Assembly (NCBI GenBank): GCA_044892525.1
Contig: CM097885.1
Location: 24,554,001-24,618,000 of the forward strand
DNA length: 64,000 nucleotides
Source of the DNA: Schmidtea polychroa
Taxonomy: Eukaryota
Direction of reading: 5' to 3'
Shown here: positions 1 to 57,226 of the stretch, piece by piece
How the letters are laid out: each line of letters begins with the position of its first letter
Numbering within the stretch: the first letter of the stretch is position 1
Notes under the pieces: model-generated
The model's input: the letters and a program-made list of their open reading frames with translations, nothing else
Databases searched by the model: none
What the model was told of the DNA's origin: nothing
Made by a program: the position numbers and the translations under genes

Positions 1-232
1 TATAATTGTCGAGCACTCTATGGGTTCACGGACGCCGATAGAAGGCACGTGTCCGATTTATTTCGGTCCCTCATCGAGATTGTTTTCCCAAATGCCTTTC
101 TGTCGTCCATCTTGTTCTAGACAATCGCAAAGTTTAATCACATACTCATTAGACAACAAGAATCATTTATTTAATCACTACTATATTACAAGGTCTGTTT
201 TACTCAGGAGGGGTCGCACTCTCGAATATTCC

Positions 233-700
233 TCAGGATCGTGGAATGGCTGCAGGCTCTTTCGATTTTTCTTGCTCGGCCAGCCAGGCCCTTTTCAATT
301 TGTCTCTTGTATTCCGCCCCAGTCGTTTACGTTTCGGCTTGCTTGCCTGGGCAGGTGGATATATCTTGGCCAGCTTTACCGGAAGTGGGCGAATCTGCTC
401 ACAGAGAGTGTCCTGGATGAACCTTTCGTTCAGTTTACTCTCGAGCGAGCGCACTTGTAGCTTCAGCGCTCGGATTTCGAGTTGATCTTGCTCCGCCTGG
501 GTCTGGAGTTGTGAGATGTGTGTTGTCCGTTTCTTCATCTCAGCCGGACTGAACCAAGTACCTTTGAGTTCTTGGCACTTGACCTTGAGCTTCTCGACCC
601 GACTTCGAAGGTCTTTGGCTTGTTGCTGGGCCTGTTCGCGGTCCTTTCGTAGATTTTCGAGGAATTTGTACACTAAACGAAGATAATAATGAAGTTCCAT
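233..700 (-). CDS. Orphan coiled-coil protein (155 aa) with basic NLS-like patch; probably mobile-element cargo
   Basis: ATG-initiated ORF rich in heptad-like Q/E/K/L, with KPKRKR. GC is higher than the flanks. No recognisable family. Confidence 0.45.
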   Translation of the reverse strand: MELHYYLRLVYKFLENLRKDREQAQQQAKDLRSRVEKLKVKCQELKGTWFSPAEMKKRTTHISQLQTQAEQDQLEIRALKLQVRSLESKLNERFIQDTLCEQIRPLPVKLAKIYPPAQASKPKRKRLGRNTRDKLKRAWLAEQEKSKEPAAIPRS

Positions 701-997
701 AACTAGCCTTCATATGCGTAAAAGTGATTCGATTAATTGTATAGAATTAATAGATGAAGGATAGGGAGGGTCATCTCGTCCCTGGGGACACCCCATACGC
801 AATAAGACCTATATGCAATGACTAAAAGATGATCTATTATACGACGAATATGCACGATGAACAATAATATAAAAGTTCTAATAATAAAAATTTCACAAAT
901 TGTCATAATTGCTACAAAAACAGAAAAATCAAACGCAACACAGTATCACTAATTGTATCACTCAAATAATTTCGTCCGAATTGTCACTACTGATGAG

Positions 998-1408
998 TTA
1001 GACCGGGTTCTTGCGGGGCCTTCCTCGTTTTCGTGGAGGGGCATCTGCCTCCTCCAGCTCTTCGGGGGTTACTCCCTCTGCTTCGGCTCTGAGCTGGAGT
1101 TCGAGTCTCCTCAGCCGCATCTGGGCCACTTCTACTTCGACGGCCGCTCGATCGCGGGCTTCTCGCAACTCATTGTTGGTGGGCTCTGTTTTCACCCACG
1201 CCGGGGCATCGGGCTCTGGGCCACTTCGGATGACCGGACCGTAATTATCTAGGTCCAACCCCCGGTTCCAATCGTGGATCCGGTACCAGATGTACCGGGT
1301 TCGGAGTCGCGTGATCATTTGATTGTAGGCTTCATCACCGTTAGAGTCGTCAGAGTGAGACATTCTATAATACACAGCCTGATATGAGTCTTTAAGGGAC
1401 TCGGACAA
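998..1408 (-). CDS. Orphan protein with short coiled coil and C-terminal AT-hook; start uncertain
   Basis: GC-rich ORF ending PPRKRGRPRKNPV (RGRP AT-hook core). Starts at TTG; the nearest upstream ATG (~1418) is out of frame. Confidence 0.45.
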   Translation of the reverse strand: MSESLKDSYQAVYYRMSHSDDSNGDEAYNQMITRLRTRYIWYRIHDWNRGLDLDNYGPVIRSGPEPDAPAWVKTEPTNNELREARDRAAVEVEVAQMRLRRLELQLRAEAEGVTPEELEEADAPPRKRGRPRKNPV

Positions 1409-1453
1409 CGGAGTTCATAATTAAAACCTTGCATTCAAAGTTAATCATTTTCG

Positions 1454-2597
1454 ATAGTTGTAACTTGAAAAAAAAATTTAATGAAGTTGTATGACTAGAG
1501 AAACGACTGCAATTACAACCTGGATTTCCGCAATTAATTTTTAGTTAAAAAGAAATTCAAAAGTCCTGCGTAAATTTTTAGTAAATCTTACGCTTTAACT
1601 GAATATATCCTAAAATTGATAACTAAACATATCCTAAAATTGATTAGCAATTAACTTTGTTTAATTTAATCATTTAAATTTTCAGAATCTTATTTACCAC
1701 TAGATGGTAATTCAAAATTTTATACATTAATTTTTCCTACTAATTTATGAAATTAGACCATTTTGGTAATTCACCACTAAATTCGGGTGCACTGGGGCGA
1801 TAAGTATTAGTGACGAGCTTAGTTTCTCGTTTACTTACTGCTCCCTCGGTTGTGCTCGTCGTGAGTAGTATAATCTTCTCTGGCTAGCTTGGAAGTAATT
1901 TATTTATTAACAATAAATTTTCAATTTCAGGTACGTTTGGTGGGAATGGCCGATTTTAACTTTTGAGAGATTGTCATACGACTCCTTGCTGGTACTTTTG
2001 TTTTATAGTTTATATCCAATACACATAGTTGTAACTTGAAAAAAAAATTTAATGAAGTTGTATGACTAGAGAAACGACTGCAATTACAACCTGGATTTCC
2101 GCAATTAATTTTTAGTTAAAAAGAAATTCAAAAGTCCTGCGTAAATTTTTAGTAAATCTTACGCTTTAACTGAATATATCCTAAAATTGATAACTAAACA
2201 TATCCTAAAATTGATTAGCAATTAACTTTGTTTAATTTAATCATTTAAATTTTCAGAATCTTATTTACCACTAGATGGTAATTCAAAATTTTATACATTA
2301 ATTTTTCCTACTAATTTATGAAATTAGACCATTTTGGTAATTCACCACTAAATTCGGGTGCACTGGGGCGATAAGTATTAGTGACGAGCTTAGTTTCTCG
2401 TTTACTTACTGCTCCCTCGGTTGTGCTCGTCGTGAGTAGTATAATCTTCTCTGGCTAGCTTGGAAGTAATTTATTTATTAACAATAAATTTTCAATTTCA
2501 GGTACGTTTGGTGGGAATGGCCGATTTTAACTTTTGAGAGATTGTCATACGACTCCTTGCTGGTACTTTTGTTTTATAGTTTATATCCAATACACAT
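1454..2597. repeat. Perfect tandem duplication, 2 x 571 bp
   Basis: 1454-2024 is repeated at 2025-2595 with no difference visible by eye; AT microhomology at the junction. Confidence 0.95.
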
Positions 2598-3479
2598 TTA
2601 CATTTCGTTAATAATAAAGTTTAGTATTTTCTTTTGGTAATGCTTTTATATTTCATATAAAGTATGTATTCGTAATTTATTAATAATTTATAAAGTTGTT
2701 TTTTAGGTATTGCGGTAATCTGTACTATTTTCTCGATGCTTTACTGGTGGTTCAAGTAAACCTGATTAATCATTCCAAGTTATTAAGGTAAGTTTATCTA
2801 ACTCTTAATTTCTGGGGCTACTAAGTTGACTAAAATTTTTCCATCAACTGATAACCTTGGGTTAAATTAAATTATTATATACATGTAGACGCCTATACTT
2901 ACACCTATACCCAAATATATACATCCGCACATATTCTTAACTAAAATTAATAATTCTAACATCGTCTTCGGGGCTGTTACTAAAAATAGAGTTTGGTAAT
3001 TGCGAAGGTTTTTATTGGAGCAAAAGGGTATTCATTCTAAATTTAATCATGAGGGGGAATCATAATTTTTTGATAGTTTAATTTTTATAAAATAATGATA
3101 ACCATTTAATAATATATTAATAATCATGATAATAGCAATCATAATGAGGCTAATGGTAATAAGACTGCTACTGATAATAATATTAAAAATGCTAATAATA
3201 ATAATGGTAGAGCTATACTCCTATCAGATTACTATCTATGAGAGGGTCATTCATAAAAAATTAACAATTTGTATTCTATATATATATTGCAAACATTAAG
3301 GTAAATTCATAAACTATAACTTAGAAATAACTTAAACACCTATGCGATTCTTAAGTATAATACAAATTTGGAGGTAGTGTATACTTATAAATTATATTTG
3401 AAGTTTAATATTAAATTATATTTTATATTTTAAGCATATGATGCATTTAAAATTAGATATTATATTTTGTGATTTAGAC

Positions 3480-4480
3480 ACATTAGCCATCTATGAATTA
3501 TATATTTAAGTATAACATAAATTCATATTTTATAAATTTGGCATATTAGACTTTTATAAATTAGGCATATTAGACATTTATAAATTATATATTTAGGCAT
3601 AATATAAAATTATATTTTATAAATTAGGCATATTAGACCTTTATAAATTATATATTTAGGCATAATATAAAATTATATTTTATAAACTAGGCATATTAGA
3701 CATTTATAAATTATATATTTAGGCATAATATAAAATTATATTTTATAAATTAGGCATATTAGACATTTATAAGTTATATATTTAGGCATAATATAAGATT
3801 ATATTTTATGAATTAGGCATATTAGACATTTATAAACTATATATTTAAGTATAATATAAAATTATATTTTCTAATTTAGGACTATTGTACATTTATACAT
3901 TATATTTTTGAGTATCATATTAAGTTACATTTTACAGTTTAAGTATGTTCTGCATTTACCAATTATATCTTTAGGTATAATATAAAGTTATATTTTCTCC
4001 TTTCGTGCTATCATACATTTATACATTCTATTTTTAAAGATGTATTTTATAATTTAATTTTTATAGATTCTAAATCAAGTTCTATTTTATAATTTAGTAC
4101 TATTACCCAATCCTACATTATATTTTTAAGTATAATATAAAGATGCATTTTATAATTTAATATTTATAGATTATATTTTTAAGTACAATTTTTTAAGTTA
4201 TTTTCCTAATTTACGAATATTTCGCAATTATAAGTTATATTTTAAGCACAATACTAAGTTATATTTTATAATTTAGGGCAATACATATTTACAAATTATA
4301 TCTCTGAGAATAATTTTAGGTTATATTCTATAATTCAGGGATACTACATGTTTATAATTTTTATTTTTAAGGGCAATATCAAGTTATATGTTACCATTGA
4401 GGAACGCTATCTATTTAGAAATCATATAATATAAAATTCTATTTTTTAAATTAAGATGATTATACATTTAGAGATCATGT
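3480..4480. repeat. AT-rich minisatellite, 63-bp period, degenerating rightwards
   Basis: GGCATAATATAA recurs at 3596, 3659, 3722 and 3785. Confidence 0.9.
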
Positions 4481-6399
4481 GTTATTCAAAATTATATTTT
4501 ATAGTTCGGCATATTGTACATCTACAGATTAATAATTTAATGGTAATATGAGGTTACGTTTCACAATTTACTAACATGAGGCCTTCATGAGCTATTCCTT
4601 CCTGATTATATTCTACGATATAATTAACTGAGTCTTTTCATTTTATTATTTACGCCTGTCGAACTTCTTTATGAGGATTAATGCTTTTAATTCTGAGAAA
4701 GATCTTTACAATGACACGAAAATTCTATATATCAATGAGGTTCGACAAACGTTTAGGTATAACGTGGGTTCCTTAATGATATCCAACCGACTGCATTACT
4801 AAATTGTAAGATGATGTTTATTTAAGTCTGAGTTCTACTCAATTATGACCTTAGTGGAAGACTATTGTATGAGATTTTTAATGTTGAGTTTAATTGTGTT
4901 CTGCATTCGAACTCGGGAAGAATGCTTGCTTACACGGCCTTACTGTGACCGCTACGGCAAGCCCTACTGTAGTGTTGAGTCGAAACATCACTGTCGACCG
5001 ATAAATAAATATATGGAGCCATAGCGAAGGGGTTTTATCGACACAACTCCATGGCAGAACCATGAAGTGGCCGACCTCCGATGACCGAACAAAAAAAAAT
5101 ATATAAAGGATATTGCATGTCTGCATGTTTCATTTTAGAAAAATTCATTACCATCAAATGTAGGACTAAATAGAGACGCTCTGAGACGCCGCTGATCAGT
5201 CGTATTTAAAGAAATAAAAAATTAAATAAAATAAAAATAAAAAAATAGGTCTAAAAAAATGATTTACATTAAAATAATTACATAAGTGCTTATTCATAGA
5301 TAAAACATATATAAATCAAAAAATACCTACTATTAATTTTTCGGCAAAATTTTCGTCAACAAAAAATTGGCATAAAGTGATTGATTGTGACTGAAACGTG
5401 TCAGTATATATACCTATTTTGTACACGTGTATGTATTGATGCATTAAAACAAACTCGAATTCTTTTTATTCCAGAATTTTCTATTTCGCGATTTTGATAT
5501 TTTTAATGGCAATTTTTGTGCCATAATTTTTGTTTTTATTTTTAAATTTTTATTTTTTAATTATTTTTCATTAATTTTACGTCCATGGTGGATTTGGAAC
5601 GGTTCCAGAACATTCTATATTACTTTTAATTTAATTTTTATTTTAACTGATGTTTTATGAATTTCTTTTTAAGATTTTTTTTATTTTTATTACTAATTTA
5701 TTTATTTTTCTAAATTTTATTGTTTAAGGTAGCTTTTATGATGGTCATCGCCATTTTTATGGAATGTTCTGGGTTTTTCTGGAATTTTTTACTGTTTTTA
5801 CCATCTTTTAAGTTATTCGAGTTTGCTTTTTGTAATTCTATGTTTATTTGGTTATTTTTGAGTTAGATTTTGCATAACTTCTTGCTTTTGTATAATTTTT
5901 ATTTAATTTCTGTGTTTATATTTTTTGTTGTTTCTCTTTTAATCATTATTGTTTATTTGATGTAATTTTAATATTTAACTATACTTTTTGCTTTTTGCAT
6001 GCTGTGTACTTACACATTTCAGTCACAATTATAAGTTTGGGTCTAGAATTCAGTTCTAGCCCAACATAAAACACTCGGGGGCCCATAAAATTGCGACCCG
6101 CAATTTAAATCAGAAGATAAATAAGATTATTTTCAGAATACTTGCACTATATTACAAGTGCCTACATGCAAATTGGGTCCACGAGCTACAGGGTCGTGAC
6201 CTCAATACCCACATACATAAAAATGCTACTATTACACTACATTTTACAGATGGGTTGAAAGATGAAGAAAAAGAACGACCGAGGTCGGTCCACATTAAAA
6301 TAAAATTATCATGCTCAGGAATCAATGTTATCAGTCATAATCAGTCTCAGTCTTTAAAATCACAATTGTTTGATAATGTTTTATAATGTCACGAAATGT

Positions 6400-7407
6400 T
6401 TATACTGTCGTGATGTCACAATAATAGAATTCGGTTGTTCGGGATCTCGTCTCGATGACGGCTCTGGTTTCAATGTTTGGGGAAGATTTGAAGTATCTTG
6501 GTTGGTTCGTTGTTTGGACTAGCTGTTCTTCCATTGGGATACGAATACTTCTTGATTGTTCTTTTAGTTTGAGGGTTTTGCTTCTTTCTTTACTGGGATT
6601 GGGTTTGAGTGCAATCAGGCTCAGTACGGTGATGTTTATCATTAGGCTTGCCGCTAATAGGATCAATATTGTGAGGGGTTCAGATTCTCTTAATTCTACT
6701 ATTTTGGGCTTGTTCATCATTTCTCCCAATTGGGTTGTATCTGCAATTTCTGATTTTTCGGGTTTGTTGAATTTGTTTTCTTCCGAGGTGACAACTTTCT
6801 TTATTTCCTCTAGGGTTTTAATCATCTTCTCGGAGTTCATTGGGTTTTTGTTTATGGTAGTTAGGATTTCTCTTGTCATTTTTTTCAAGGTCTTCGTTAC
6901 CTCGTTTTAAATGCTGGGTTCCTCTTTGATGGTGGAAATTATTTTTCCTCTCATTTCCTTTAAAGATTTTACTACTATTTCGCAATTGCTTGAACGTCCA
7001 TTGGCGGCTGTTGTTACCTGTTGTTTTATTTCCTCTAATATTATTACCATCATTCTCATTGCGGCTGGGTCTGTTTGGGATTCTCTCTTTGCTTTCTGAC
7101 TTTGACATTGTTTGGCTAATGTTGCTATCAGGGTTCTGATAACTTTCAGTTCTTGTTCTAAGATTGTTTTTATTGTCTGAGCCATTTGCACTTCCGTCGA
7201 ACTTTCAGTTGTTGGTGGACATTGCGAACATTGCAACTTGATTTGTTCGCATTCCTCATTGGGTTTTTCGCAGATTGATTTAAAGCTACTACATGTGCTA
7301 TCTTCTCTGCGATATGGGTATTCTTTTTGACATCTAATCATTGATTCTTCAGCTTGCAGGATTCTTGGCATTGTCATTATAATCATCACCACGATTAGGC
7401 TTCTCAT
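6400..7407 (-). pseudogene. Type-I membrane protein (~335 aa): signal peptide, Cys-rich domain, helical stalk, TM, tail with PMEE; one in-frame stop; TNFR-like or env-position gene
   Basis: ORFs 6907-7407 and 6400-6888 share a frame and are separated only by TAA at 6907-6909. Signal MRSLIVVMIIMTMPRILQA, six clustered Cys, TM LTILILLAASLMINITVLSLIAL. Confidence 0.65.
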
Positions 7408-7483
7408 CTTTACATATACATATACATTAACAATAATTACTTGGCTTTATTTACAATTTATTTACACAGTTATTTTGTCTCAT

Positions 7484-8251
7484 TTATTGGGAGTCACCGA
7501 CCTCATCTCTTAATTTTACGGGAGGTTCAGGTGCTCGTCTTTTGCTCAACTCGTTCATTCTTATTACTTCGAGTTGCGTTGCTATCAACTGTCTTTTTAA
7601 TTCTGGTATTCCTTGTAATTGCTTCTCTTTACTTTTCCATTTTCTCTGTCTGATGGTCATTGTCGTCTGCAGTGTTTGCATGCTTCGTCGTTTTTGATTT
7701 AAAATTCTCCGGTAATTTTCTTTCAACTTCCATTGTTTTTCTGTTTCCTCTCTTTGTTCCTTGATCTCTTCCTTGAGTTTTGCATTTCTCTTCTCGACTC
7801 GTTTACTTTCTTGCATTCTCGTTTTTGCATAAGCATATTGTGCTTCTAACTGTTCGATATAAACTTGATCGATATTTACAATCTTTTTCAACTTCCTTGT
7901 TTCTGATTTCCAATAATCTTCGATTACTACCTGAGCTCTCAATTCCATTATCTCCTGTCTCAGGTTTTTATTTTCTGTCTCTTTTCGTTTCGATTCATTT
8001 GTTTCCCTCAAAATTTCTTGCTTGACAGTGTTTATTAATCGTCTTGATTGAACAATTTGCTGTCTCAATCTCGTAGTCTCTACATTTTGATTTGCAATTT
8101 TCGTTTTGAACAAATTCCTGCTGACTCTCCATTTATTACTATAATATTTCATCGATTCTTGTTTGATTGGCATCGTATTCTGGCTTTGTTCAGGTTGGTC
8201 GTTTGACCTTCTTTCGTTACTTGTTGATTCTCTTTCTTTTAAATAATTCAT
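7484..8251 (-). CDS. Orphan basic coiled-coil protein (~255 aa)
   Basis: Open frame from the ATG at 8251; K/R/E/Q-rich heptads. Confidence 0.55.
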   Translation of the reverse strand: MNYLKERESTSNERRSNDQPEQSQNTMPIKQESMKYYSNKWRVSRNLFKTKIANQNVETTRLRQQIVQSRRLINTVKQEILRETNESKRKETENKNLRQEIMELRAQVVIEDYWKSETRKLKKIVNIDQVYIEQLEAQYAYAKTRMQESKRVEKRNAKLKEEIKEQREETEKQWKLKENYRRILNQKRRSMQTLQTTMTIRQRKWKSKEKQLQGIPELKRQLIATQLEVIRMNELSKRRAPEPPVKLRDEVGDSQ

Positions 8252-8434
8252 ATCTACAAAAATATACACATCATATTTCCTTTCGTCTTCTTTTTATTTT
8301 GAATTTTTGATTTTGTAGTTTTTATTTTTATTTTTATTTTTATTTTTTTTATTTTATTTTTTTTATTTTTTTTTTTTTTGAAATCATTCTTTTTTTTGAA
8401 ATCAATCTTATTTACAGGCAACATCTCTCTTCGA

Positions 8435-10032
8435 CTAAATCCATGTTGCGTTATTTTGTTCGTTATTTTTTTCGAAGCCTTCATCTGTTGTGACTTCGGC
8501 AGGCTGTGGCACTTGCAACGGGAACGGGTAGAGTGGCATTAATAATATTGGTGGTTGTCTCCTTAACCGATCTAATTCCTCCCGCAATTCCGTTGAGATG
8601 TTTATTTCTTCATCCAACAAAAACGTTAATCTACTTTCGTTTTCTATCATTTCGTCTAATTCCTCTTCCAATCGTTGGGTTCTTTCCAGCGCTTTTAGCT
8701 TCTCGATTTCTGCCCTCAGATTCGCTTCGTTTCCTTCGAAGCATCGTTTTATTATTTCGGTTTCCTGTTTGGCTTGTTGAATTGCCTTATCGCACTCTTC
8801 TCTACATTTCGCATTAAGCTCAATCTGATGCTTCCAATTTACATCCCTTTAAGTGTACATACCTATATATCCGTTCATCTCTTGATTGGCCTCGTCCACT
8901 TCCGTTCGTAATTGTCGGATCTGTCGAGCTTGGTCTGTCAATTGTTGTTCCCATCTCTTTTCTTGGTATTCATACCTTCTTATCTCTCGAGTCTGTTTCT
9001 TTATGACTCTCCGTCTACCGTCGCTGGTCCGCGTCTTGATTCTATGTTCTCTACTCAGTCGGCTGATCTCATCTTTTTGGTTTTCTATCGTTTCCCACAT
9101 TTTGAATTCGTCTCTTTCCATCAGTTTCATTGGCAACTGTCTTAACTCTTCTTTGGTCTCTTTCCAATTCTTTTTCCATTTTCGGGCTTGATGCTTGAGA
9201 CACTTTTCGGTTTCCTCAGATTTCTGCTGTCGTTTTCTCCACTCTACTTCTTCTTCTTCTCGCTGTGTAGCCCTCGTTTCGTAAAATTCTTGGTCTGCTT
9301 TTCGTAGTCTCAGTTGTTCCTTGCTACTGATTTTCCAATAGAGCACTTGAGTTTGACTTCCTAGATATTTATACTTCCATTTCTGAGCTTGTATTTTTAT
9401 TTGTGTGTTAATTCGCTCTAATACGTTATCCTTAATGATGGGTTCTCTGTGCGGTGTTCTCCTCCCTTGACCCCTGACTTCGTTTAGGGTCTTTTTGCAT
9501 CTTTCCCATTTTTCTTTCATCATTGCGCATTTGCCCTTTACTTCTTCTAGTTCTGCCTTATAACCTCGTATTTGATGTTCGTGACTATAATTCTGCCTTG
9601 TTTGGAGTGTTTCGTATTTTCGCTTCCATTGTTGCGCTTGTAGTTTTATTCGTTCCGTTTTACGCTGTTCCTCCTCGCATTGCTCTTTTGCTTCTCTAAG
9701 TTGTTCTTTTTGCATTATTATTTCTCCGCATAACCCAACTATCTCCATAATCCGTTGAGTTCGTAAATTCGAGAGCTCTTCCTCTAATTCTTGGTATGTT
9801 GAGGTATTTCTCACATCCTCGGTTAATTCCTCTACCTGTTTCATCCATTTCTCTTTTGTTGCTAGCGCTTCCGCCTTCTCCACTTCTAACTCTTGTTGCT
9901 TTTCTCATACATGGTTTTGTACATTTCTATTTCTCTCTTTACTCTTTCTGCTTCGTAAGCTTGTATGATGGATTTGTACTGTTCAAGTTGTTGCATCTCG
10001 GTCTCCACATAGGTTTGCGATTCCTTATTCAT
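8435..10032 (-). pseudogene. Orphan long coiled-coil protein (~530 aa) with one frameshift and one in-frame stop
   Basis: ATG at 10032 (MNKESQTYVETE...), frameshift near 9900, ORF 8849-9883, then in-frame continuation past TAA 8849-8851 to the stop at 8435. Confidence 0.6.
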
Positions 10033-10114
10033 TGTCTAAATAATTACACTATTACTACTACTATTATTTCATATATTTATTATCTACACTTTATACACGG
10101 AATTTTAATTTTTG

Positions 10115-11294
10115 TTATTGATCGGAGTAGCGAAATCCTTTGATTCGCTGCGCAATCCTCTGTCTACACATTGGACATTCCTTTACTTTTCTACTACACG
10201 TGGCACATGCGATCAAATGTCCGCATTGCATATGAATAACTTCTACACTCCTCTCCCAACACATAGTACATTTGATATCTCGTAAGATAGCTGCTTTGAC
10301 CATTGATTCTTCTTTTATTTTTGTTTCAGGTTTTTCTCTATACTGAGTTATCGCTCTGATCATATCGTACGTTGTTGTTGGTATATGCACGTTTTTCTGT
10401 AGTTTCTCTCTAATCATTTTCTTTACCCTTGTCGTGCCTATTCCGGCTACTTTCAACGCTCTGCGCATGTTGGGCTTGTCTACGACTTCGTCGACCTCTT
10501 CTTCTGTTACCAGTACTTCTGGATATTCGGTTTCTTGTTCGCTGTGATATAGGCACCATGCTTGATGTCTTATTTCTGGCATGCCTTCTTCTGGTAATCT
10601 CTGTTGACTTTCGCATCTTTCACACTTGAGTATTTGCTTTTCTGTTAGATAGAATCCTCTTATTGCTAGTTCAGGTCCTCTCGTATCATCTCCGAACGTT
10701 TTCATTCTATTATCTGCTATTTGCGTGAGGAATTCGCCTTCACAAGTTGGAACATATTCGTCAACGATTCTGGTTATCGCGATTGTCATTTTCCCTCCTT
10801 TTTCGTCTTCAGTTTTCAATTTCTCCAGTGCTTCGTATTTTATTTCAGGTTTGTTGTATACATCAAATCCCATTACGAATGGACAATTTGGGAATCGTTT
10901 GCGATGTTCTTCCTTTGGGTGCTCTCCTTTTTTCCATTCTGCTAATTTCCCGTTACAGAAGCGGCACGTTACTTGATCGGGTATCTCTGGTTTTCCGGTG
11001 AAGAAAAATCTGTTGAGTGCCAGCGCTCGACTCTGTTCCTCGGTGAAAATGGTCTGGTGTTCAAATGACAGGTATCTCTGGTTTTCACATCTGAATTGCT
11101 CATTGCTCCCCTGCCTCAAATCTCCCTGCACTAAGCTATAACCATTTCCCACAATTCTTCGATAGTACGTGAAGCCACTGGGTTTTGTTCTGCTGACTTC
11201 CGAATTTCCTACCTTTTCTCCGGATGACGTATCGTACTCCTTCTTTCATTGTGATCGTTTTCTTTCGGATATTCGGTCTCGCTTGATTAATCAT
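10115..11294 (-). CDS. Inhibitor of apoptosis (IAP/BIRC-like): BIR + degenerate BIR + C-terminal RING
   Basis: Canonical BIR C-x2-C-x16-H-x6-C (CRFC...EEHRKRFPNCPFV), a second BIR-like unit (RMKTF...GFY...CERC...H..C) and an IAP-type RING CTMC...CGHLIACATC...CPMCR. Open frame 10115-11152; the upstream ATG at 11294 is frameshifted relative to it. Confidence 0.9.
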
Positions 11295-11435
11295 CTATAA
11301 TAAATTTCATCATTTCTTTTTGCATTTTTCTTTTTCTAATTTTTATGGTTTTGGTGAATTATGTTACTTTATACAATAGCTTTATAATTACTTTACATCG
11401 TTTTTACAAAATATTTACAGTTTCCCTCTATCCGT

Positions 11436-12791
11436 CTATCGTATTTCTATTGTTGGTCCTTCCTCGTCTAGTTCGATTAGGAAGAATATAGTGTCCTTTT
11501 CTATGTAGGAACCGTCATTAAACTGGTATAACTGCATAAACTCTGCTGCTCCTACTGCAGTATTAACCTCTGTAATTGGTTTATTCCGTGCTGGACTTGA
11601 TGCGTGAAAGTATATTATGTGCGTCCGTTCTCTTCCTAAGAGAGATATTCTTACTTTGTGTCGGAATGGCCAGACTATTAGGTCATCGAAGTCTCCTTTA
11701 CAGATCTGCATATATAAGGACATGCACCGATCTTTAAACTTTCCCTCGCCATTTGGAAACCATATCAATTTCATCTTGTATCCATGTTTCTTGGCGTAGA
11801 ATGGTTTGCTCACTATCGTTGTCTGGATTCCTTGCTTTGCTCGCTCCATTATTTCTGTTATTCCTTGGATTTTCCACATATATGGTAATATTGGTAGTTC
11901 CTCTGTTGTCAGTTCCTTTGCCGTCCATTTGGTTTGTAGTTTAGTTACTTCGACTAATTTGTCGTCTAATTTCAACATTCTTTGTATTACGGCTTCTCTC
12001 GTATTCTCGAAGCTTTCCTGTGAGCTCAGCATTTCTTTTATCATGATTTTATGTGATTTGAGTTCGTCTTTGACGTCTTCGATTGCCCTTGCTGTTAACT
12101 CTATTGCTCTCATCATCTTTTGCATGTGTTCGAATGTATTCTCCTCCACATGCTTCTTCATTTCTTCTGCTGGTAATTGTGCTCTACAATCGAATGTCAC
12201 CATTGGGCATTTTATTGCTTTTCTCGCGCATATCTCCCAATGTTCCTTTAATCTGACGTTGTTAATTTCTCCACACTCGTTTGGGCATCTCCCTGTATAT
12301 TCGTCGCAAATCCGTCTTTCTACTGCGTTTCGATGTTCCATTTCGATCTCTCTCCAATTAGCAGTTTCTCCGCAAAATTCACATTTTTCCGTCCGTGCTT
12401 CGCATTCTCCTTTATGTTTGGTTTTCTCTTTTCGTAAAAACTTTACTGTACATGCTTCGCATTCTAATTCTACATTTTCACATACGTCGGTATGAGCACT
12501 TAACTCCTTTACTCGACCTGTCCATTCGCATGACCTTTGAGGACATCTTATTTTTACTTCTCTGATTTCTCGGTTCATTGCTTTATCCGGTATTGTGCCA
12601 GTGGGAACCAACTTAAATGCTTCTCCACACCCTGGACAAGTTTCTCGCTTTAGCTTGGCTAATCTTATATCACACCCTCGGCACAATCTACAACCGCATC
12701 GAGTTTGACTTGCTCCAATTAATAGTCTTCTACATGCTGCATCTACAATTATAACTTTTAAATCTTGGGATTCTACTTGGTTATACTCTAT
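11436..12791 (-). CDS. TNF receptor-associated factor (TRAF): RING, TRAF zinc fingers, coiled coil, MATH
   Basis: RING-like QTRCGCRLCRGC...CPGC, DKAMNREI, CEWTG, Zn fingers, and MATH motifs WKI, SKPFY..GYKM, NGEG, KGDFDDLIVWPF. Frame is open to an ATA codon at 12791 (possibly a mutated ATG). Intronless. Confidence 0.9.
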   Translation of the reverse strand: MEYNQVESQDLKVIIVDAACRRLLIGASQTRCGCRLCRGCDIRLAKLKRETCPGCGEAFKLVPTGTIPDKAMNREIREVKIRCPQRSCEWTGRVKELSAHTDVCENVELECEACTVKFLRKEKTKHKGECEARTEKCEFCGETANWREIEMEHRNAVERRICDEYTGRCPNECGEINNVRLKEHWEICARKAIKCPMVTFDCRAQLPAEEMKKHVEENTFEHMQKMMRAIELTARAIEDVKDELKSHKIMIKEMLSSQESFENTREAVIQRMLKLDDKLVEVTKLQTKWTAKELTTEELPILPYMWKIQGITEIMERAKQGIQTTIVSKPFYAKKHGYKMKLIWFPNGEGKFKDRCMSLYMQICKGDFDDLIVWPFRHKVRISLLGRERTHIIYFHASSPARNKPITEVNTAVGAAEFMQLYQFNDGSYIEKDTIFFLIELDEEGPTIEIR

Positions 12792-13289
12792 TTATTTACA
12801 AGATTATTTACATTTTACTCCTTTCTCTTACTCATTTTACTCTGGGGGGGGGGGGGGGGGGTACTGAACTTTGATTTCAAATCTAATTCAGGTACAAAGT
12901 CGATTGTAATGGTTGTGGTTTGGTCTAACTGCATATTGCCGAGGACAGCATCTGTGTTTAATATAACTTTAGAAACTATCCTAGAGCGGATGAGCATTTG
13001 TAGCCTTGGAAACGAAAAAAAAGTCAACAGCCGAAACAATGCATTACGATTGATCTATACTCAAGGTAATTATCTATTTAAAAATGATTGCCATTATTTG
13101 AAAATTTCGTTTTAGTATTATAAAATTTTAAAAACTCTAAACATAAATTTTGTATTTTACTAATATCAACTTTTTTAAAAAATATTAACAAAAGTTTTGA
13201 TTTTACAAATATCAAAATATTTTTCAATTTGTTTAAGTGTATTAAAATAACAATTTCTTTTGAATTTTTTAAAATTTTTAATAAAATTA

Positions 13290-14786
13290 ATGACCAAGGC
13301 AGAAAATCAGAGAACAACTAAAGCATCCGACTTCAAATTTGGAAAAGAAATCGGTCATGGGTCGTTCTCAACTGTAATGATAGCTAAGGAAATTTCATCC
13401 AATAAACATTATGCTGCAAAAATTATTGATAAAGTTTTTATTTCTAAGCAGCGAATGGTTAATACTGTTATGATTGAAAAAGAAGTTCTTCGAAGAATAA
13501 ATCATCAGTTTTTTGTATGTCTCAATTATACATTCCAAGATCCAGAAAGATTGTATTTTATTATATCATATGCTGAGCGAGGAGAACTTTTATCTCATTT
13601 AACAAGACTTTCGTGTTTTGATTTAACGTGTACACAATTTTATTCCGCGGAAATAATTCTTGCATTAGAATATTTACATGGAATTAACGTTGTTCATCGA
13701 GATATAAAACCAGAAAATATTTTATTGAGTGAAAATATGCATATAAAAATTTGTGATTTTGGCAGTGCAATTATTATCGATAGACCAGATCTCAAGCCTT
13801 CTTCTTTTACAGGTACAGCTCAATTTGTTTCTCCAGAAATGCTGGGATTCAGTAAAGAAACACGTGATAATAGCAATTCAGATGAACCGAACTCTGATTC
13901 AGAGGAACATAGCGAAATTGAAGTTAAACGAACCAGTTCACCTGATAATTCTAGGGAAATATTATACCTAATGGACTTTTGGGCATTAGGATGTATCGTC
14001 TACCAAATGTTATCTGGACGAATGCCATTTCACGTCAGGCATTCACGGCATGAATACGAAATTTTCCAAAAGATCCGTGGTTTAAAATATGAGTTCCCAG
14101 TTGGGTTTGATGATACTGCTAAAGATTTTGTCTCTAAACTTCTTGTATTGAACCCACTGGAAAGATTAGGAAATCCATCCAGTGGAAAACATGCTGCTTT
14201 GAAAGCCCACCCCCTTTTCAGTTCAATTAATTTCGAAATTATCGGATCACAAAAACCTCCGTTATTACTTCCCAACATTGAACCCATAGTTCACAGTAAT
14301 TGGGACGAAATTCCTGTTGGTTTTGAAGAAGCTTGGAAATTCAATATCAAAAAAGAATTTCAAGAAATGGAAAAAGCTGATAAACAGAAATTATTGCAAA
14401 ACCAAGAAAAACTAAATCCATTTCATAGATTTGTACGAAATCGATTGATCATAAAACAAGGCATTTTGTACAAACGACGTGGATTATTTACTCGTAAAAG
14501 GATGTTTCTATTAACTGAAGGACCTCATTTATTTTATGTCGATCCCGATGCAATGCAATTTAAAAAAGAAGTCAATCTTAGCCTAATTACTGGCATAGAA
14601 GTAAAAAATGACAAAGTATTCTATATCGTTACTAAAAAGCGAACATATTTTCTTGAAGATCCTTCAGCAAAGGCTGACGAATGGAGACAGAGTATCGAAT
14701 CGATTTGTTTAGAATATTATGGATCATTTAAATTGTCCCCTGGCACTTCCACTCAAACGTCTGTAGTTACATTACCTGAATCATAA
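13290..14786 (+). CDS. PDPK1: 3-phosphoinositide-dependent protein kinase 1 (AGC kinase + C-terminal PH domain), intronless
   Basis: DFKFGKEIGHGSFSTV, HRDIKPENILL, DFGSA, SFTGTAQFVSPE; PH domain KRRGLFTRKRMFLLTEGPHLFYVDP is typical of PDK1. First ATG at 13290. Confidence 0.93.
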   Translation: MTKAENQRTTKASDFKFGKEIGHGSFSTVMIAKEISSNKHYAAKIIDKVFISKQRMVNTVMIEKEVLRRINHQFFVCLNYTFQDPERLYFIISYAERGELLSHLTRLSCFDLTCTQFYSAEIILALEYLHGINVVHRDIKPENILLSENMHIKICDFGSAIIIDRPDLKPSSFTGTAQFVSPEMLGFSKETRDNSNSDEPNSDSEEHSEIEVKRTSSPDNSREILYLMDFWALGCIVYQMLSGRMPFHVRHSRHEYEIFQKIRGLKYEFPVGFDDTAKDFVSKLLVLNPLERLGNPSSGKHAALKAHPLFSSINFEIIGSQKPPLLLPNIEPIVHSNWDEIPVGFEEAWKFNIKKEFQEMEKADKQKLLQNQEKLNPFHRFVRNRLIIKQGILYKRRGLFTRKRMFLLTEGPHLFYVDPDAMQFKKEVNLSLITGIEVKNDKVFYIVTKKRTYFLEDPSAKADEWRQSIESICLEYYGSFKLSPGTSTQTSVVTLPES

Positions 14787-15135
14787 CTTTTGTTTTTATC
14801 TAAATTTATTTGTCATATAGAAAAAATGTGAATTTGAACGGGTTTTAATATAATAATTTAATATTGGTTTGTTTTTATTTTAAATTAAATGAATAAAATC
14901 ATATATATACATATTAATAATTATAAATATAATCGCATTGTTTTAATATTGCCTTTATTTCGTAATTGATAAATTTTACGTTGTGAATGTATTTTACAAC
15001 TGATTTAAATGAAACCAATAGGAAACGAGTGGTTCGATGTCATGTGAATCTGCGTGCAACCAATCATAATTTTATGATTCACTACATTAAATTCATTTTT
15101 AAAACAAATTAAATCACTTAATTAATTTTTAGACA

Positions 15136-16590
15136 ATGTCACAATTTTATGGCGGATCCACAATATTGGCACCTCTATCGAACATCATGGGTATTCCAGT
15201 GGATCAAATTAATTTTATTGTGTGCAGTTTATTGTCAATCGGATTGGGTCAGATTATGCGACATAAATTCCCTCCTTCCAAATTCTCAGGAAGCACAAGA
15301 GGAATCATAGAAGCATTTTTTGGAATACTAATTGCTCTTTTTTGCTTTGGATACCAAGTCAAGTATTTATTGCTACAGTCAACAGTTTCCTATGTAATAT
15401 TATTATTCTTGCCTTCACAAATATCAGCGCATTTGGTAACGTATTGGTGCATGGCTTTCATGGCGGTGGTTCATTTATACAGAATGCATTACGATTACGG
15501 AGGTTATACTCTTGATATATCTGGTCCGGTTATGATTCAAACCCAAAAACTGACCAGTCTTGCATTTAATCTTCTTGATGGGCATAGAATAAATCAAGGA
15601 ATGAAACTGGATCAGAAGAATCATGAATCTCATGCTGTGAGAAAACTACCAGACGCAATTAAGTTTTTCGGTTACACATTCTACTTTCATGGTGTATTAG
15701 CGGGTCCTTTTGTATTCTATAATGAATATAAAGAATATATCACTGGATATGATGACAAGCATATCCCATGTTCTAAAAAGCAGTTATCTTCAGCACTTTG
15801 TTTATCAGTAATTCATGGATTATTAACAGCATATGTTGCACCACAGTTTCCTTATATATTTGTTTGCAGCACCGATTACCAACGGATGCATATGACTCGT
15901 CGAATAATGTTCACAATGATTTCTTTTTTCCTGGTGAGACAAAAATATTACTTTGCCTGGTCAATGGTTGAAGCCGGCGCTCTTAGTACTGGATTAGGAT
16001 ATTGCGGAAAGGATAAAAACGGGGAGAATAATTGGTCAAAAGTTAAAAATTACGATTTCATGGCAATTGAAAGCGGAAGCAGTTTGAAAGTGTTGGTAGA
16101 CGGATGGAATATCTCCACGACAAGATGGCTCAGAGAATTGATTTATGAACGAGCTCCGTTGTTCTGTCGGACGATTCTAGTCTTCACTGTCAGTGCATTT
16201 TGGCATGGATTTTATCCGGGATATTATTTGATGTTTTTGACATTTTCTCTCTTTACATTTTGCGCTAGATCCGCCCGGAAACACATTCGGCCATTGTTCG
16301 TTGTCAGTCCGATTACGCTTCAACTTTATCATGTTCTAACGAAAATTTTCACGAATTTGGCTTTGAATTACGGGCAGGGGCCATTTTATTTGCTGGAATT
16401 TCAATCGGGGCTTTTGTTTTGGAAGCCATATTACTTTTTCGGACACGTTTTGGCAATGTTCTGCGTATTGACCTTGCAGTTCCGGCCAATAATCAACGAC
16501 AAAGTCAACCAAATGAACAATGTTTTTACCAGAAAAGCCCAATATCGATTTCAGAAATTAAAGATCCATTTGCAGAATAAGTTGAGATGA
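15136..16590 (+). CDS. MBOAT-family lysophospholipid acyltransferase (MBOAT1/2-like), intronless
   Basis: Multi-TM protein with YTLDISGPVMIQTQKLTSLAF, AGP, KYYFAW, WNISTTRWLR and catalytic SAFWHGFYPGYY. Confidence 0.92.
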   Translation: MSQFYGGSTILAPLSNIMGIPVDQINFIVCSLLSIGLGQIMRHKFPPSKFSGSTRGIIEAFFGILIALFCFGYQVKYLLLQSTVSYVILLFLPSQISAHLVTYWCMAFMAVVHLYRMHYDYGGYTLDISGPVMIQTQKLTSLAFNLLDGHRINQGMKLDQKNHESHAVRKLPDAIKFFGYTFYFHGVLAGPFVFYNEYKEYITGYDDKHIPCSKKQLSSALCLSVIHGLLTAYVAPQFPYIFVCSTDYQRMHMTRRIMFTMISFFLVRQKYYFAWSMVEAGALSTGLGYCGKDKNGENNWSKVKNYDFMAIESGSSLKVLVDGWNISTTRWLRELIYERAPLFCRTILVFTVSAFWHGFYPGYYLMFLTFSLFTFCARSARKHIRPLFVVSPITLQLYHVLTKIFTNLALNYGQGPFYLLEFQSGLLFWKPYYFFGHVLAMFCVLTLQFRPIINDKVNQMNNVFTRKAQYRFQKLKIHLQNKLR

Positions 16591-31400: not shown

Positions 31401-34126
31401 GCGCAATAATGCCTAGTTACGGCCCTGTATAGGATACGACAGTGTTTTCTTTTAAATTTATTTGACCAATCGTTTTATTAGTCAACCACTTTTTGTGTTA
31501 AGAAAATGGAACGGACATTATTTCACTCACTTAATATACTATCGAATGCAAATGAAAATTAAATAAAATGAACAAAATATATTTATGGATAAAATAATAA
31601 ATAAATAATAATAAATAATTGTATCAATATTATAATTAATAAATCTATGAAATTATTGATCTGAAAATTTCATTATCATTTATTTATTAAACAATAAGAT
31701 CACTATTTGAATAAATATATTTTATTAAAAAGCTTCATTCAGCCAGTGTTCGAATGATGGCGCAAAAGTCAAGAGTACTAATTATTGGGAATTGTTCTCC
31801 ATAATCACTTAAGATACTCACTTAGAGATTAAAGAGTCGAGTCGGTTAAACATGTTAATTGTGCGTCGCATATTGCAGCACGTGGCCAATAGAAATGTGA
31901 CTGTGTGTATGTATTTGTGTATGTGTACGTTGATGTGGAATCGGGAGATTAAGATGAATTCTGGATCATTCATAAGAAAATTTGAATACGAATAAGGCAT
32001 ACAATTCTTTAAATTTCTATAAAAATATTAAAGTTAGAAAAAATGAATTTTCTACATCATTTTCAAATTCAATATGCTAAAGTAAGAAAATTATGCTTAG
32101 TGCGGAACGCATGTATACTTATTTATTAGTGGAATATAGAGAAAACCACGAAACGAATACGAAATACATCACACTTTTTCACATTCATATAAAGATAAAT
32201 GAGCATATAAAATTAGTTAATTGCGCATTGAAGTATTTTCTAAAACCACCAAAAATGTCACATGAGTTTGACTTACTAATTGTCAGCTTAGAGTAGATTC
32301 AATTTGGAAATAGTGTTAACAACATATCTTAAATTCAATAATTTTGTTTTAATGTAATATATTATTGTCATTCGGTGATATTCAAAGTTTTTATGACACA
32401 GCTGATTTTTGCATTGTAATTCATTTTCTTTTTTTTGATAAAATAAAAGAAAAATTATTTAACCGATTCAAGAAAATTATATTGAAGGCGTATCATTTTT
32501 ATTCTACTGATCAGGTGTCGTTGTGAAAGTCACAAGTAGGAAATCTGTGAAAAATTGGTAGCAAACAATTGGAAAGTTGAAGAAAGCTGTGGTATAAAGA
32601 CATCTTTCAAACGAGTTATATTTATGACCATATAGTTATATACAGCTTCTTTTAAAATAACTGAGAATTATCTAGTTCTATAATAAGTTAGTTCCACGTT
32701 TTTGAGTTGCTACGTGAAAACAAACTTTGTTTAATGGGTGATGTTTGCAACATTTTTCTTGAAAATAAACATTTAAGTCATTATTTCTCATTTTAATTGA
32801 AAATCTCAGGAGGTAGTTCAACGACCAAGGAAGCCGCCAAATTTGCATTGTTTCATGTCTTCTGATATTCTACTCGGATTACCGCATTTATTTGATCAAT
32901 AAAGTCAGGATCCTACGAAAAAAGTTTCACATTCTGGATCCTAATTTACTCCATACCAACAATTTTTCCAACAGACTCTATTCAATACAAAAAGTAGCGT
33001 AAAAATAAGGGCTACTCCATTCCAGATGTTACGATTACCTAATTTTTAAAATTGAACATCATATAAGAGCTTTATCGGGTTACATAATCGAATCCAAAAA
33101 AGTTTTAAAGCAAAATGTGGAGAAATTTCTCCCAGAAAGTAACGTGATTTATTAGAAACACAATAAAATTACTGATTGTTGCTGAAGAAAGTGTAAAAAT
33201 GTCAATGAAAATTATTTAGAGACATAGAACATTGGTTCTCACTGGGTTTTTAATTTTTATGAGTCTAAACCAGCGCTTCTCAACCTTTCTGTTATTGCGA
33301 CCCAGTTTACCAACGTAAATATTCTCGTGCCCCCCTTTTTTGATCTATCGAAAATTATGGTGTCATAATGAGAAGTTAAATGTCTTGAATCTTCAACTTC
33401 AAGGAACAAATACATATATTTTGGAAACAAATGATAAAGTCAATGCTTTTTGTAGGAAATTGGATTTGTGGCTTAGAAATTTAAAAGAAAATAAATTGGT
33501 TCTATGTTTCCGAATATAAATGAATTTGTAAAGACATACAAAACCGAAGAAGTACGTATAAACGTGATTTTATTAGCTATAAACAAACATCTAAGCATGC
33601 TAGCAAAAGATTTTAAAAAATACTTTTTTGCTGAAGAAAAATTTCTAGCAAGTTACGAGTGGGTTAGGGACCCATATCACAATCTTCCACAAGGTCTCTC
33701 GACTTCTGAAGAGGAAACTTTTATTGATTTTACAAGAAACAGTGAAATCAAAAGACAATTTAATAAGAAATCGATTTTTGAATTTTGGGCTGGTTTGGGT
33801 GACGAGTTTGCGACATTAAAACGAAGAGCTTTTCAAATACTTTTACCGTTTTCAACATCTTATCTTTGCGAAACCGGATTTTCTGCGGTGGGTTCGTTGA
33901 AAACAAAATACAGATCACAGCTAAATATAGAAAAAGAACTTAGGGTATCCATATCTGGTATTACTCCTTCATTCCAAAAACTTTGCAATGAGAAACAGGC
34001 TCAAGGAAGTCATTAATTAATAACATAACATATTTAACTAGTATTTGTTTCATAGTAATAAACTTAAATAATAATTATAATAAATTATTTATTGGTAATA
34101 TGTAATTATAAACTGTATTCTTATTT

Positions 34127-34219
<93 letters not shown>

Positions 34220-37200
34220 TTTGTTTTTAAATATACTCGCTGCTCTAAACACTTTTAGCCTCACCACGTAAGATACACAACACATATAGACAATACAATG
34301 AAAAATATACATCCATCAACAATACAGTGGAAATAAATACAATATGAATAATTTAATAATTAATACAATTTATTGAGGATTTTTAAAGTTTTTTAAAAGA
34401 ACATATATTTTACAAATTTTTTAGTACAAATATTTTAAAAATATAATAACAGTTGGAAAATTTCCCTTATCCCCGACATCAGGCCCGACGCTAGAGTATT
34501 TGGCGCCCTAGGCAAACTAAAAAAATGGCGCCTCTAGTCTAGAAACAAACCCAATAATTAAAGAAGTAAATGAAAATAAAATAACTATACTTCATTTATT
34601 TATTACACAAAAATATATATGAAAACAAAAACCATTTAAAATTTAATTTTTCGTGCTTTTAGTTTAGTGAAATCTTCAAGCAGCAACTTCGTATCTATAT
34701 CACGCGCCATTTCGTGTTCAATCGACAATATTGCTAATCCCACAAGCCGTTCTTGTGACATTGTAGATCTTATATATGTTTTGATCTGTTTAAGCTTCGA
34801 AAAGCTTCGTTCACCGCTTGCCACAGAAACTGGTAGGGTTAATAAAATTCGCAAAGCAACAAATATATTTGGAACGCTGTCCACTATATTATTTTTACAA
34901 ATATAATTAAGTACATCTTCCGGCAATAAGTTTTTTGGAATATGTCTAGCTATAAATATCAATTCGTTCAATAAATCTGTACCATCAATATCTTTAGAAT
35001 CATCGTGCCGTAAAAAATTTTCCAGTTTAAGACAATCCTCTAATATTTTCTTTGACGAAATATATTGCAAATTATGTATGTTGTATAGAAATCCAAATGT
35101 TGAATTTATCGTTGACATTTGGGTGAATCTTTGCTCAACAGATTTTAAAGCTCTATCCAAAACTGCGAAGTAAAAGCTGATCTTAAATTTTTCTTTTGGG
35201 TTCTGAATGGGCTCATCGTTGGCTTCATATTCGAACTGTTTTTTTTGTTTTCTGATACGCTGAGTTTGTTTAAAGATTGGGGAAATTTCTGATTCTTCAG
35301 CAAGTTCTCGCGCATCTACCAATATTCTTTCAAAACCTTCATCATTTCGGGAGTTGAATAGAAATTTTTTGGTATTTTCTAGTAGCTTCATAGCATCTTG
35401 AATATTAATTTTCTCAGATTGAAGTTGTTTTCTTGTAATATTTATGTTGAAAAGAATATCATACCAGATAATAACAGAAACTACAAACTCGAAATTCGAA
35501 ATAGCTTTAGCAAGGCCCTGTGCTTCTATACGTGAAGTATTACCAGAAACTCCTGTTTGAGAAGTATCTTGAAAAATATCAATAAGTGCAGCAATAACTT
35601 TACTTAGCTGATAGCGTAGAGGTTTAAGGGCATCGATTCGGCTCTCCCATCTTGTATCGCTCAATGGCTTCACTGTCAAGTTTGAAGCATGACGTTTTAA
35701 AACTTCCCATCGACGTGTTGAAGCGGCAAAATAGACATATATTCGTTGCACTAACATAAAAAATGATGTAGCATCTAAACAACAGCTTACAGCGTCATTA
35801 ACAACCAGATTCAAAGAATGCGCAGAACAAGGAACAAATAGTGCTCGTGGATTTAGATTCAGAATTCGCCGTTGCACGCCATTTTCTTTGCCTTTCATAT
35901 TGCTACCATTATCGTATCCTTGGCCACGCAAGTTCTCAATAGGTAATGACATATCTGCTAACATCTGAACGATTTCATCGGTCATACCAGCACCAGTTGT
36001 ATCTGTTAGTTTCACAAATCCCAAAAAATGTTCTCTTATGCATATGGGATCTAAATCACAATTTTCTGTATTTGTATGGACAAAACGAATAATCAACGTC
36101 ATTTGTTCAGTATGGCTAACGTCTGGTGTGCAATCCAGGATTATTGAAAAATATTTAGCCATGGAAATCGATTTTAAAATTTTTGTTTTAATACTCTTAG
36201 ATAAAAGTTGTATTAACTCATTCTGAATATCTTTTCCCAAATAATGAACTTGTGTTTCATTGTTCTTTATTCTGCGAAGATGCTCACCCATAATTGGATC
36301 AAAAGAGGCCAAATATTCTACAAAGCTAAGGAAGTTTCCATTTCCAGGAGAATACAATTTTTCATTGCTTCCGCGAAATGCAATATTTTGCGTAGCAAGC
36401 AATTTAACTAGACCTATAAGACGCTCTAAGACTTGTTGCCAGTGTCTCTCTTCTTGTTTTATGAGACGCAAATTATCCTGGTCAATAGTTTTATTCTTTT
36501 TTAAACGCAATTCTAGCTCCTTCCAAGTTTGAAAATTAATTAAATGATCCTTATTTTTCTCATGTCTTTCTAAAATTACAGACATATTTTTCCAATCGCT
36601 TGATCCTTTATCGGAGAGATGTATTACACGCTGGTTATTATTAAAAATTTTGCAACAAAAGCAGAATGCCGAATTAGTTGTTTTGGAATACTGTAGCCAA
36701 TGACGCCGCATTTCTTCTCCATTTGCAAGTCTCCTTCTATAAAAATTCATTGAAAATTTTCTATGGCTCTCATTTTGAGGAAAATCAAATTCTTCAATTT
36801 GTTCTGGTCCGTGTTCAACCAAAATTTGCCTCAAACGGCCAGAACGTAAGTCATGTGAATTTAACCAAGTTGCCGGATCACTATAATCAAGACTCGAATT
36901 TACGCTTTCTAATATTTCCAAAGTTTCATTAATTAAAATTTCTTCAGTGTCTTCTATAGTTTCTAATACAATTTCTTCTATAGGTTCTTCAACAGTTTCT
37001 TCAATTGTTTCAACTTCAGTTTCTTCTATAGTTTCTTCCACATTCGTATGTGGAAACTCAGTCAAAATAGGCACCTCTGCATTTCTAGTTGTAGAGTTCC
37101 TATCCATTTGCTCTTCCAAATTGCAGTCTACTTGTTTTCTCGGAGTCATTTCATTTCGATTTTTATCTTGTGATTGTTGACGACAAATATATTTCAGAAA

Positions 37201-44771: not shown

Positions 44772-48428
<3,657 letters not shown>

Positions 48429-48470
48429 TTTCCCCCCTCCTTGATCCCTTCTAGCGGATCAACAACCCAT

Positions 48471-50757: not shown

Positions 50758-50899
50758 AATTGCCCTCTATCCAGGATACTCCATCACCTTTCCATTAAAT
50801 ATCGGCAGCTGTAAGGGTTTCAATCCCATTATGAACTTCTGTTTTTCATTGGGCTCTTCACTCCTAAATGATTTCTCTGGGACCTTCCGCGACTCTACT

Positions 50900-51640
<741 letters not shown>

Positions 51641-57119: not shown

Positions 57120-57226
57120 TTCCTCTTCAAACCTTTCTCTCCTTAGGAACCTGTATACTTTCTCACTTACCCTTCCTACATTCTCCCACTTTTCTACCCC
57201 TTGAGGATATCCCGTCGACTTTTCTG

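Follow-up and report, generated by a model that had tools for sequence, protein, structure and literature searches.

A six-cysteine membrane-protein gene in the cargo of a Burro-type giant retroelement of Schmidtea polychroa, with relatives among spliced host genes

Introduction

On the minus strand of the window (the whole 64,000-nucleotide stretch of Schmidtea polychroa DNA analyzed here; contig CM097885.1, positions 24,554,001 to 24,618,000 of the forward strand), a gene at 6400..7407 lies just before a long terminal repeat (LTR), in the position of an envelope gene, and reads as a small membrane receptor. Is it the envelope gene of a retroelement, a receptor-like gene taken from the host, or cargo without function? 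An earlier note, made from the letters of the DNA, had seen in it a captured or mimicked receptor of the TNFR family that docks the neighboring TRAF. Planarian TRAFs are greatly expanded (PMC6109357), and the account in PMC7519573 describes only one TNFR type for the phylum.

Results

The ORF at 6400..7407 (minus strand) is broken in the window; in intact copies it encodes a predicted type I membrane protein of 328 residues, a topology that we infer from hydropathy. As the earlier note had it, two ORFs on the minus strand (6907-7446 and 6400-6906) lie in the same frame, split by a single TAA at codon 167 (6907..6909), a stop that is private to this copy (1 of the 29 copies in register, a set that omits L003 with its indel, and 1 of 43 distinct copies). 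With X at the stop, the read-through of the window copy also has the letters that had been described: a leader, the Cys pattern, a helical stalk, a transmembrane (TM) segment, IRIPMEEQ and a terminal ITTV. The signal peptide (residues 1-19; 7351..7407), predicted from sequence and hydropathy, is of modest hydrophobicity (best 19-residue hydropathy 1.46 in this read-through) and aligns with the hydrophobic N-termini of two related proteins, P0002 and P0003, introduced below. The ectodomain (C26-C63; 7219..7332) has its Cys residues at 26, 39, 46, 53, 60 and 63, in the pattern C-x12-C-x2-F-x3-C-x6-C-x6-C-x2-C. Next come a stalk of four 25-residue amphipathic helical repeats (6751..7050) that start at residues 120, 145, 170 and 195, spaced exactly 25 residues apart (n = 4), the sole predicted TM segment (about residues 244-268; 6604..6678; hydropathy 2.59 at residue 247) and a tail in which PMEE (residues 291-294; 6526..6537), within IRIPMEEQ, fits the Px(Q/E)E motif of TRAF1/2/3/5; all these features are on the minus strand. 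The number of stalk repeats can change, because copy L058 (131-1134, minus strand) carries extra ones. The full-length AlphaFold2 model of the protein has a pLDDT of 38, and an Rfam scan of window positions 1-14000 gave 0 matches.

Two details of the window copy had been interpreted further. The seven-residue read-through extension that ends in ITTV (6400..6423, minus strand) is foreign to the family's protein: 27 of the 29 copies in register stop seven codons earlier, at the usual stop at codon 329, and of the two that read on, the window copy and L019, the latter does not end in ITTV. Nor was the class I PDZ pattern (S/T-x-hydrophobic) found at the C-terminus of copy L002. Since ITTV is a read-through private to the window copy, the idea of a class I PDZ ligand falls. 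The second detail concerns Phe42. The Cys-rich domain (CRD) of TACI is spaced C-x12-C-x2-C-KTI-C, and the Phe of the Burro pattern had been taken for a lost Cys. It is present, however, in 43 of 43 distinct copies, and since Phe or Tyr also stands there in all eight non-Burro rows, position 42 is a feature of the family and no Cys has been lost.

The gene belongs to a giant gypsy element of the Burro type, in which it is the final accessory ORF ahead of the 3' LTR. Four copies were read over 50 kb: one with both LTRs, a second with the same internal order, and two that are partial. In the first (G000:C2:22.75-22.79 Mb), LTRs of about 4.9 kb enclose the whole internal region of an element of more than 30 kb, about 35 kb, in the order LTR, RING ORF, polyprotein, TRAF, IAP, two ORFs, membrane-protein gene, LTR. 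The polyprotein, of about 4,790 residues (with open frames of 4,791 residues in other copies), runs from Gag zinc knuckles (CCHC) through MATH and Env to PR-RT-RH-IN and ankyrin. BIR, MATH, RING and ankyrin make up the apoptosis and ubiquitin cargo of the element. Just after the 5' LTR, L047:1550-1580 resembles what we take to be a tRNA-Pro primer-binding site. The plan, in-frame env included, is that described for Burro in section 7 of PMC6431247, and Burro1/GYPSM1 has in common with the present element its size (~35 kb), ~4.9-kb LTRs, a Gag CCHC-MATH-Env-PR-RT-RH-IN-ankyrin polyprotein and the BIR/IAP cargo; that section, however, names no membrane receptor-like ORF, and the likeness is one of architecture. 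Burro and its TRAF/IAP cargo are already known.

In the window, the 3' LTR (1..6066, minus strand) begins with TG at 6066, seems to continue beyond the first base of the window and contains a 571-bp duplication as well as a 63-bp tandem array. Small ORFs lie inside it (233-709 and 998-1414, minus strand), one coiled-coil-like and one with an AT-hook-like end, and L056, a different element, has similar ORFs. On the other side of the membrane-protein gene are, all on the minus strand, an accessory ORF without a Pfam family (7484..8293), a coiled-coil-like accessory ORF (8435..9904) that is in two pieces here and forms a single 533-residue frame in three other copies, an IAP with BIR and RING (10115..11245; PF00653, E 2e-14; PF13920, E 2e-11) and an accessory TRAF with zinc fingers and a MATH domain (11436..12770). 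Similarity to the full-length copies ends near 12743, so that gag-pol and the 5' LTR are absent, and the window copy is a 5'-truncated relic that spans TRAF to 3' LTR only. A G run (about 12845-12862) stands beside the truncated end, which is flanked by long uninterrupted host-like ORFs on the plus strand (13251-14786 and 15133-16590), one resembling, by eye, a PDK1-like kinase and the other an MBOAT acyltransferase. Four further stretches (33495-37296, 45082-46952, 48002-52028 and 53925-58504) look, by eye, like other mobile elements, among them hAT-like transposases, an element resembling BEL/Pao that has ubiquitin- and Rab-like pieces close to its repeats, and a small gypsy element with 237-bp direct repeats.

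Could the gene encode the element's envelope protein, or a subunit of its fusogen? Its site just upstream of the 3' LTR, its leader, its heptad-like helices and its one TM segment would all suit such a protein. The viral fusion glycoprotein family PF24664, however, matches inside the polyprotein (E 1e-67) and found no match in the last accessory ORF, whose closest relatives are intron-containing host genes (see below). Because the fusogen lies inside the gag-pol polyprotein, the accessory ORF is not env: its description as a gene in the envelope position stands for the location but not for the identity, the product is not a viral fusogen, and the envelope reading is largely refuted, with hardly any probability left to it. 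We read on downstream at ten further Env-bearing loci, most of which proved interrupted or of other kinds, and saw no additional family with an ORF of this sort; among these loci the opposite-strand L058 is a copy of the Burro accessory-gene family. Another Env-bearing element (L055:467-6871, minus strand) has two ORFs of more than 1,000 residues downstream of env, one of them Ulp1-type-protease-like by eye.

A DNA search of the genome with the gene gave 470 candidates, the 40 that were scored being 94-100% identical, and a protein search gave 860, with an open frame in 115 of the best 122, a best-scoring set biased towards intact copies. The gene has hundreds of copies, and most of the others are intact and conserved. 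Motif counts refer to 45 distinct copies from 59 loci, with the copies covering each site as the denominator: all six Cys are kept in 42 of 43 and PMEE in 41 of 42, which bears out the conservation of PMEE across copies. With 7 copies that contain stops set aside, pN/pS was compared pairwise among 19 unique intact copies; over these non-independent pairs it is 0.31 overall; by region it is 0.07 for the Cys domain, 0.18 for the TM segment, 0.30 for the tail, 0.43 for the stalk and 0.54 for the leader. Non-synonymous variants are fewer in the ten codons around PMEE, at 0.30 per codon, than in the two flanks (1.00 and 0.56), on small counts. Being open in most of the best-scoring copies and under purifying selection, the gene is real and more than a chance ORF. 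The copies are 91-100% identical among themselves, however, and the conservation of PMEE is therefore shallow. Could the gene then be neutral cargo that hitch-hikes without a function? The window copy, broken and without a 5' LTR, fits such a description, and open frames may be kept passively in young copies; a regional pN/pS that varies from 0.07 to 0.54 and is lowest in the Cys domain and TM segment speaks against it. For the family this alternative is refuted, its probability close to nil, although it is probably true of the window copy. Reads of RNA run X9 fall in 30 of the 30 bins across the ORF region, a figure to which DNA carry-over from hundreds of copies may contribute. Copies are sometimes paired about 29-32 kb apart (for example, G000:C1:265371970 and 265401127), suggesting tandem elements with a common LTR.

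A HMMER scan of 1.84 billion representatives returned two matches (E 9e-7 and 1e-4), both on the leader and Cys domain. These relatives, P0002 and P0003, are unnamed single-pass proteins with a leader, the same six Cys, a stalk and a TM segment, and the spacing common to them and to Burro is C-x12-C-x6-C-x6/7-C-x6-C-x2-C. When the genome was searched with the two, non-Burro loci ranked first. Eight host first exons were found. Seven, of which two are without the first Cys, lie in a tandem cluster at G000:C3:86.148-86.334 Mb (L112-L131) that also yielded six TM exons; the eighth is at C3:118.678 Mb (L073, L109). The host family comprises no fewer than eight single-pass genes, which contain introns, have very short exons and share an unnamed six-Cys domain. 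Contigs from three of four RNA runs (two studies) skip GT..AG introns of the gene at C3:118.678 Mb, run X9 is one that shows spliced host joints, and two introns of this gene fall inside the Cys domain, where the Burro ORF is uninterrupted. The six-Cys domain was likely captured from the mRNA of a host membrane protein; we infer passage through mRNA, in the direction from host to element, because the Burro ORF is without introns and the host gene is spliced. The proposal of a captured gene is to that extent upheld by an intron-containing, spliced host family that carries the same domain. Homology between Burro and host is limited to the leader and Cys domain, and the stalk and tail have therefore either diverged strongly or come from another source; the tail of the host gene at C3:118.68 Mb is traceable only as scattered weak segments. 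Word-index protein searches with the full protein found nothing, a word-index search with the domain alignment found nothing among proteins of 428-2000 residues, and tblastn against phage records gave no match. In the titles and excerpts of papers on Burro, on giant retrotransposons with IAP and on Burro together with TNFR/TRAF we found neither the ORF nor the host family described, though the primary Burro papers may annotate them. What is new here is the six-Cys domain common to the element and to a spliced host family.

Is this domain related to the small CRDs of TACI and BCMA, as the earlier note had proposed? In a search with ESM Atlas features, TACI-CRD2 and BCMA clusters are the top three for the domains of both P0002 and P0003 (0.83/0.79/0.76 and 0.83/0.80/0.78, the same clan filling 10 and 7 of the ten best), with 136-141 shared features and at scores under 0.9, below the reliable range; one third of shuffled proteins also reach 0.8. 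The two queries are homologs of the Burro protein, mutually non-independent, and they are parts of proteins, whereas the Atlas benchmarks concern whole ones. An AlphaFold2 model of the domain (13 rows; pLDDT 59, pTM 0.32) has short beta bridges and then helices; a beta-then-helix order is described for Grindelwald, TACI and BCMA (PMC8024323). Pfam gave no match to a TNFR-type family, either for the full protein or for any of the 13 aligned domains; the TACI-CRD2, BCMA and TNFR_c6 profiles, run against the genome, picked up neither the Burro copies nor the host family; and sequence searches of the PDB yielded chance matches of Cys spacing only. With the low-confidence domain model of pLDDT 59, no TNFR was listed by Foldseek against the PDB (best E 6.2), by a viral fold search (best E 4.8) or by the wide fold search of VIA (best Z 2.4), and a second look was empty; with such a model these blanks do not count against a TNFR fold. 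The CxxCxxC/CxxCxxxC signature given in 10.1101/2024.07.27.603686 is absent from the domain of Burro, P0002 and P0003, and the C-x3-C..C-x3-C helical module and Asp-x-Leu hairpin motif given in PMC8024323 are absent from the domain as well. This failure of the profiles lowers the TNFR claim without closing it, because Grindelwald counts as a TNFR although its sequence homology is very poor (PMC8024323). The proposed resemblance to TACI and BCMA survives at the level of a lead, through the Atlas features of two homologs, while membership of the family is not established. The domain may be a divergent CRD of the TACI/BCMA/Grindelwald type, the chances that it has a TNFR-type fold being about even, and the TNFR identity of the gene product is only a lead. 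Elsewhere in the genome, a weak classical TNFR_c6-type exon (L072:1342-1587, minus strand; E 0.03, under the cut-off) possibly belongs to the host's conventional TNFR. A genome search with PF00229, for TNF-family ligands, gave matches nowhere, its controls included, and is therefore neutral on a ligand.

Px(Q/E)E is the major motif of TRAF1/2/3/5, and TRAF2 reads it through R393, Y395, a serine triad and a hydrophobic pocket (PMC6125299). By chance, PxQ/EE arises in 7.6% of shuffles of the 60-residue tail (3.6% with a polar next residue), and the looser consensus (P/S/A/T)x(Q/E)E, which the earlier note had used, in 32%. The tail of P0002 is without Px(Q/E)E and aligns with neither the tail nor the stalk of Burro. 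To compare the receptor pockets of the MATH domains, we aligned them on solved TRAF3. In 2 of 2 copies, the MATH domain of the polyprotein (L047:8630-9115) has, besides an S-T-C triad, the equivalents of the Arg and Tyr of TRAF2 (R393, Y395), and the host TRAFs L132-L135 retain a receptor pocket like it. In the adjacent accessory TRAF (window 11436-11900, minus strand), Phe replaces the Tyr in 5 of 5 copies, the Arg is kept in 3 of 5, and the triad loop is shortened. The element carries two TRAF domains of unlike character, with an intact pocket in the polyprotein versus a fast-evolving, degenerate one in the accessory TRAF. In a MATH tree of 28 rows, both Burro MATH domains fall outside a 17-row expanded host clade, at a place where long branches meet, and a word-index protein search with the polyprotein MATH found nothing. 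Its degenerate receptor pocket makes the neighboring TRAF, to which the earlier note had assigned the tail, a less likely partner. Should the tail bind a TRAF domain, better candidates would be the MATH domain of the polyprotein or host TRAF2/3-like proteins, in which the pocket is kept.

An intact pocket within a Gag-MATH-Env-Pol polyprotein that is without TRAF zinc fingers by Pfam, in an element whose fusogen makes an enveloped particle plausible, brings up another role for the tail. The protein could be an adaptor of particle assembly: anchored in the membrane, it would dock the polyprotein MATH with its PMEE tail and tether capsids there, with no host signaling. As MATH is a separate ORF in a related Burro-like element, according to the part of PMC6431247 that treats it, linkage to Gag does not seem to be needed, and the adaptor role would leave the highly constrained ectodomain unexplained; we consider it rather improbable.

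The constraint itself, which peaks in the Cys domain (pN/pS 0.07, compared with 0.30 in the tail), suits a different alternative, in which the gene derives from a planarian-specific surface protein other than a TNFR and works through its ectodomain, as a decoy, in adhesion or in receptor interference against related elements, PMEE being incidental. The blank TNFR profile tests and a motif that arises by chance in about 8% of shuffled tails and is missing from P0002 agree with this, but TACI and BCMA twice come first in the feature search, the motif block is less variable than its flanks, and the element has two TRAF domains, an IAP and a RING gene. We regard a function through the ectodomain as unlikely, though well worth keeping in view.

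Discussion

The gene is real and selected, and is probably host-derived receptor-like cargo. Our preferred reading, which we hold with as much doubt as confidence, is that it is a captured six-Cys gene of Burro, intact copies of which possibly serve as a TNFR-like scaffold that recruits TRAF adaptors via the PMEE tail. The product of an intact copy would carry a small Cys-rich domain on a repeat stalk at the cell surface, and the stalk would cluster the tails and present PMEE to TRAF domains, those of the polyprotein MATH or of host TRAF2/3-like proteins and not that of the adjacent TRAF. Such a receptor-like protein, acting alongside the IAP and RING genes of the element, may tilt the host cell towards survival. 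This agrees with the anti-apoptotic role reported for the IAP of Burro1, which reportedly protects planarian stem cells from apoptosis (work cited in PMC13465017). A bolder form of the proposal, which we find doubtful, is that Burro carries a complete and self-contained survival circuit of TNFR, TRAF and IAP. Its receptor, captured, stalk-clustered and ligand-independent, would be a retroelement analog of LMP1 or UL144, taken from a so far undescribed family of single-CRD TNFRs in planarians.

Known single-CRD receptors (TACI, BCMA, BAFF-R, Fn14 and Drosophila Grindelwald) have in common with the Burro protein a single small Cys-rich ectodomain, one TM segment, a TRAF-type tail motif and no death domain; TACI and BCMA clusters are also the top feature matches of its two relatives, and the order of a short beta part and then helices recurs in the low-confidence model. 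The Burro protein differs from them in having six Cys with another spacing, a conserved aromatic residue where the earlier note had expected a Cys, and a 180-residue repeat stalk, and in being without Asp-x-Leu and without a Pfam match. HCMV UL144, EBV LMP1 and the vTNFRs of poxviruses and fish viruses, as presented in PMC3691878 and PMC1383482, likewise place a receptor-like or TRAF-engaging membrane protein in a mobile genome. These viral mimics, however, sit in large DNA viruses, whereas Burro is an RNA-replicating retroelement with its own TRAF, MATH, IAP and RING. The NGFR-like TNFR of platyhelminths is single-copy and has death domains, according to the account in PMC7519573; the host six-Cys family, in the same phylum, is multi-copy and of unrelated Cys spacing.

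With a captured receptor upstream of TRAF, MATH and IAP, the separate cargo domains would become parts of one signaling pathway and, if true, TNFR mimicry would extend from large DNA viruses to retroelements. The element also leads to a host family, unassigned in Pfam, of eight or more membrane genes with a single Cys domain each. If these are indeed a planarian single-CRD TNFR family, they would supply the missing upstream partners of the expanded planarian TRAFs.
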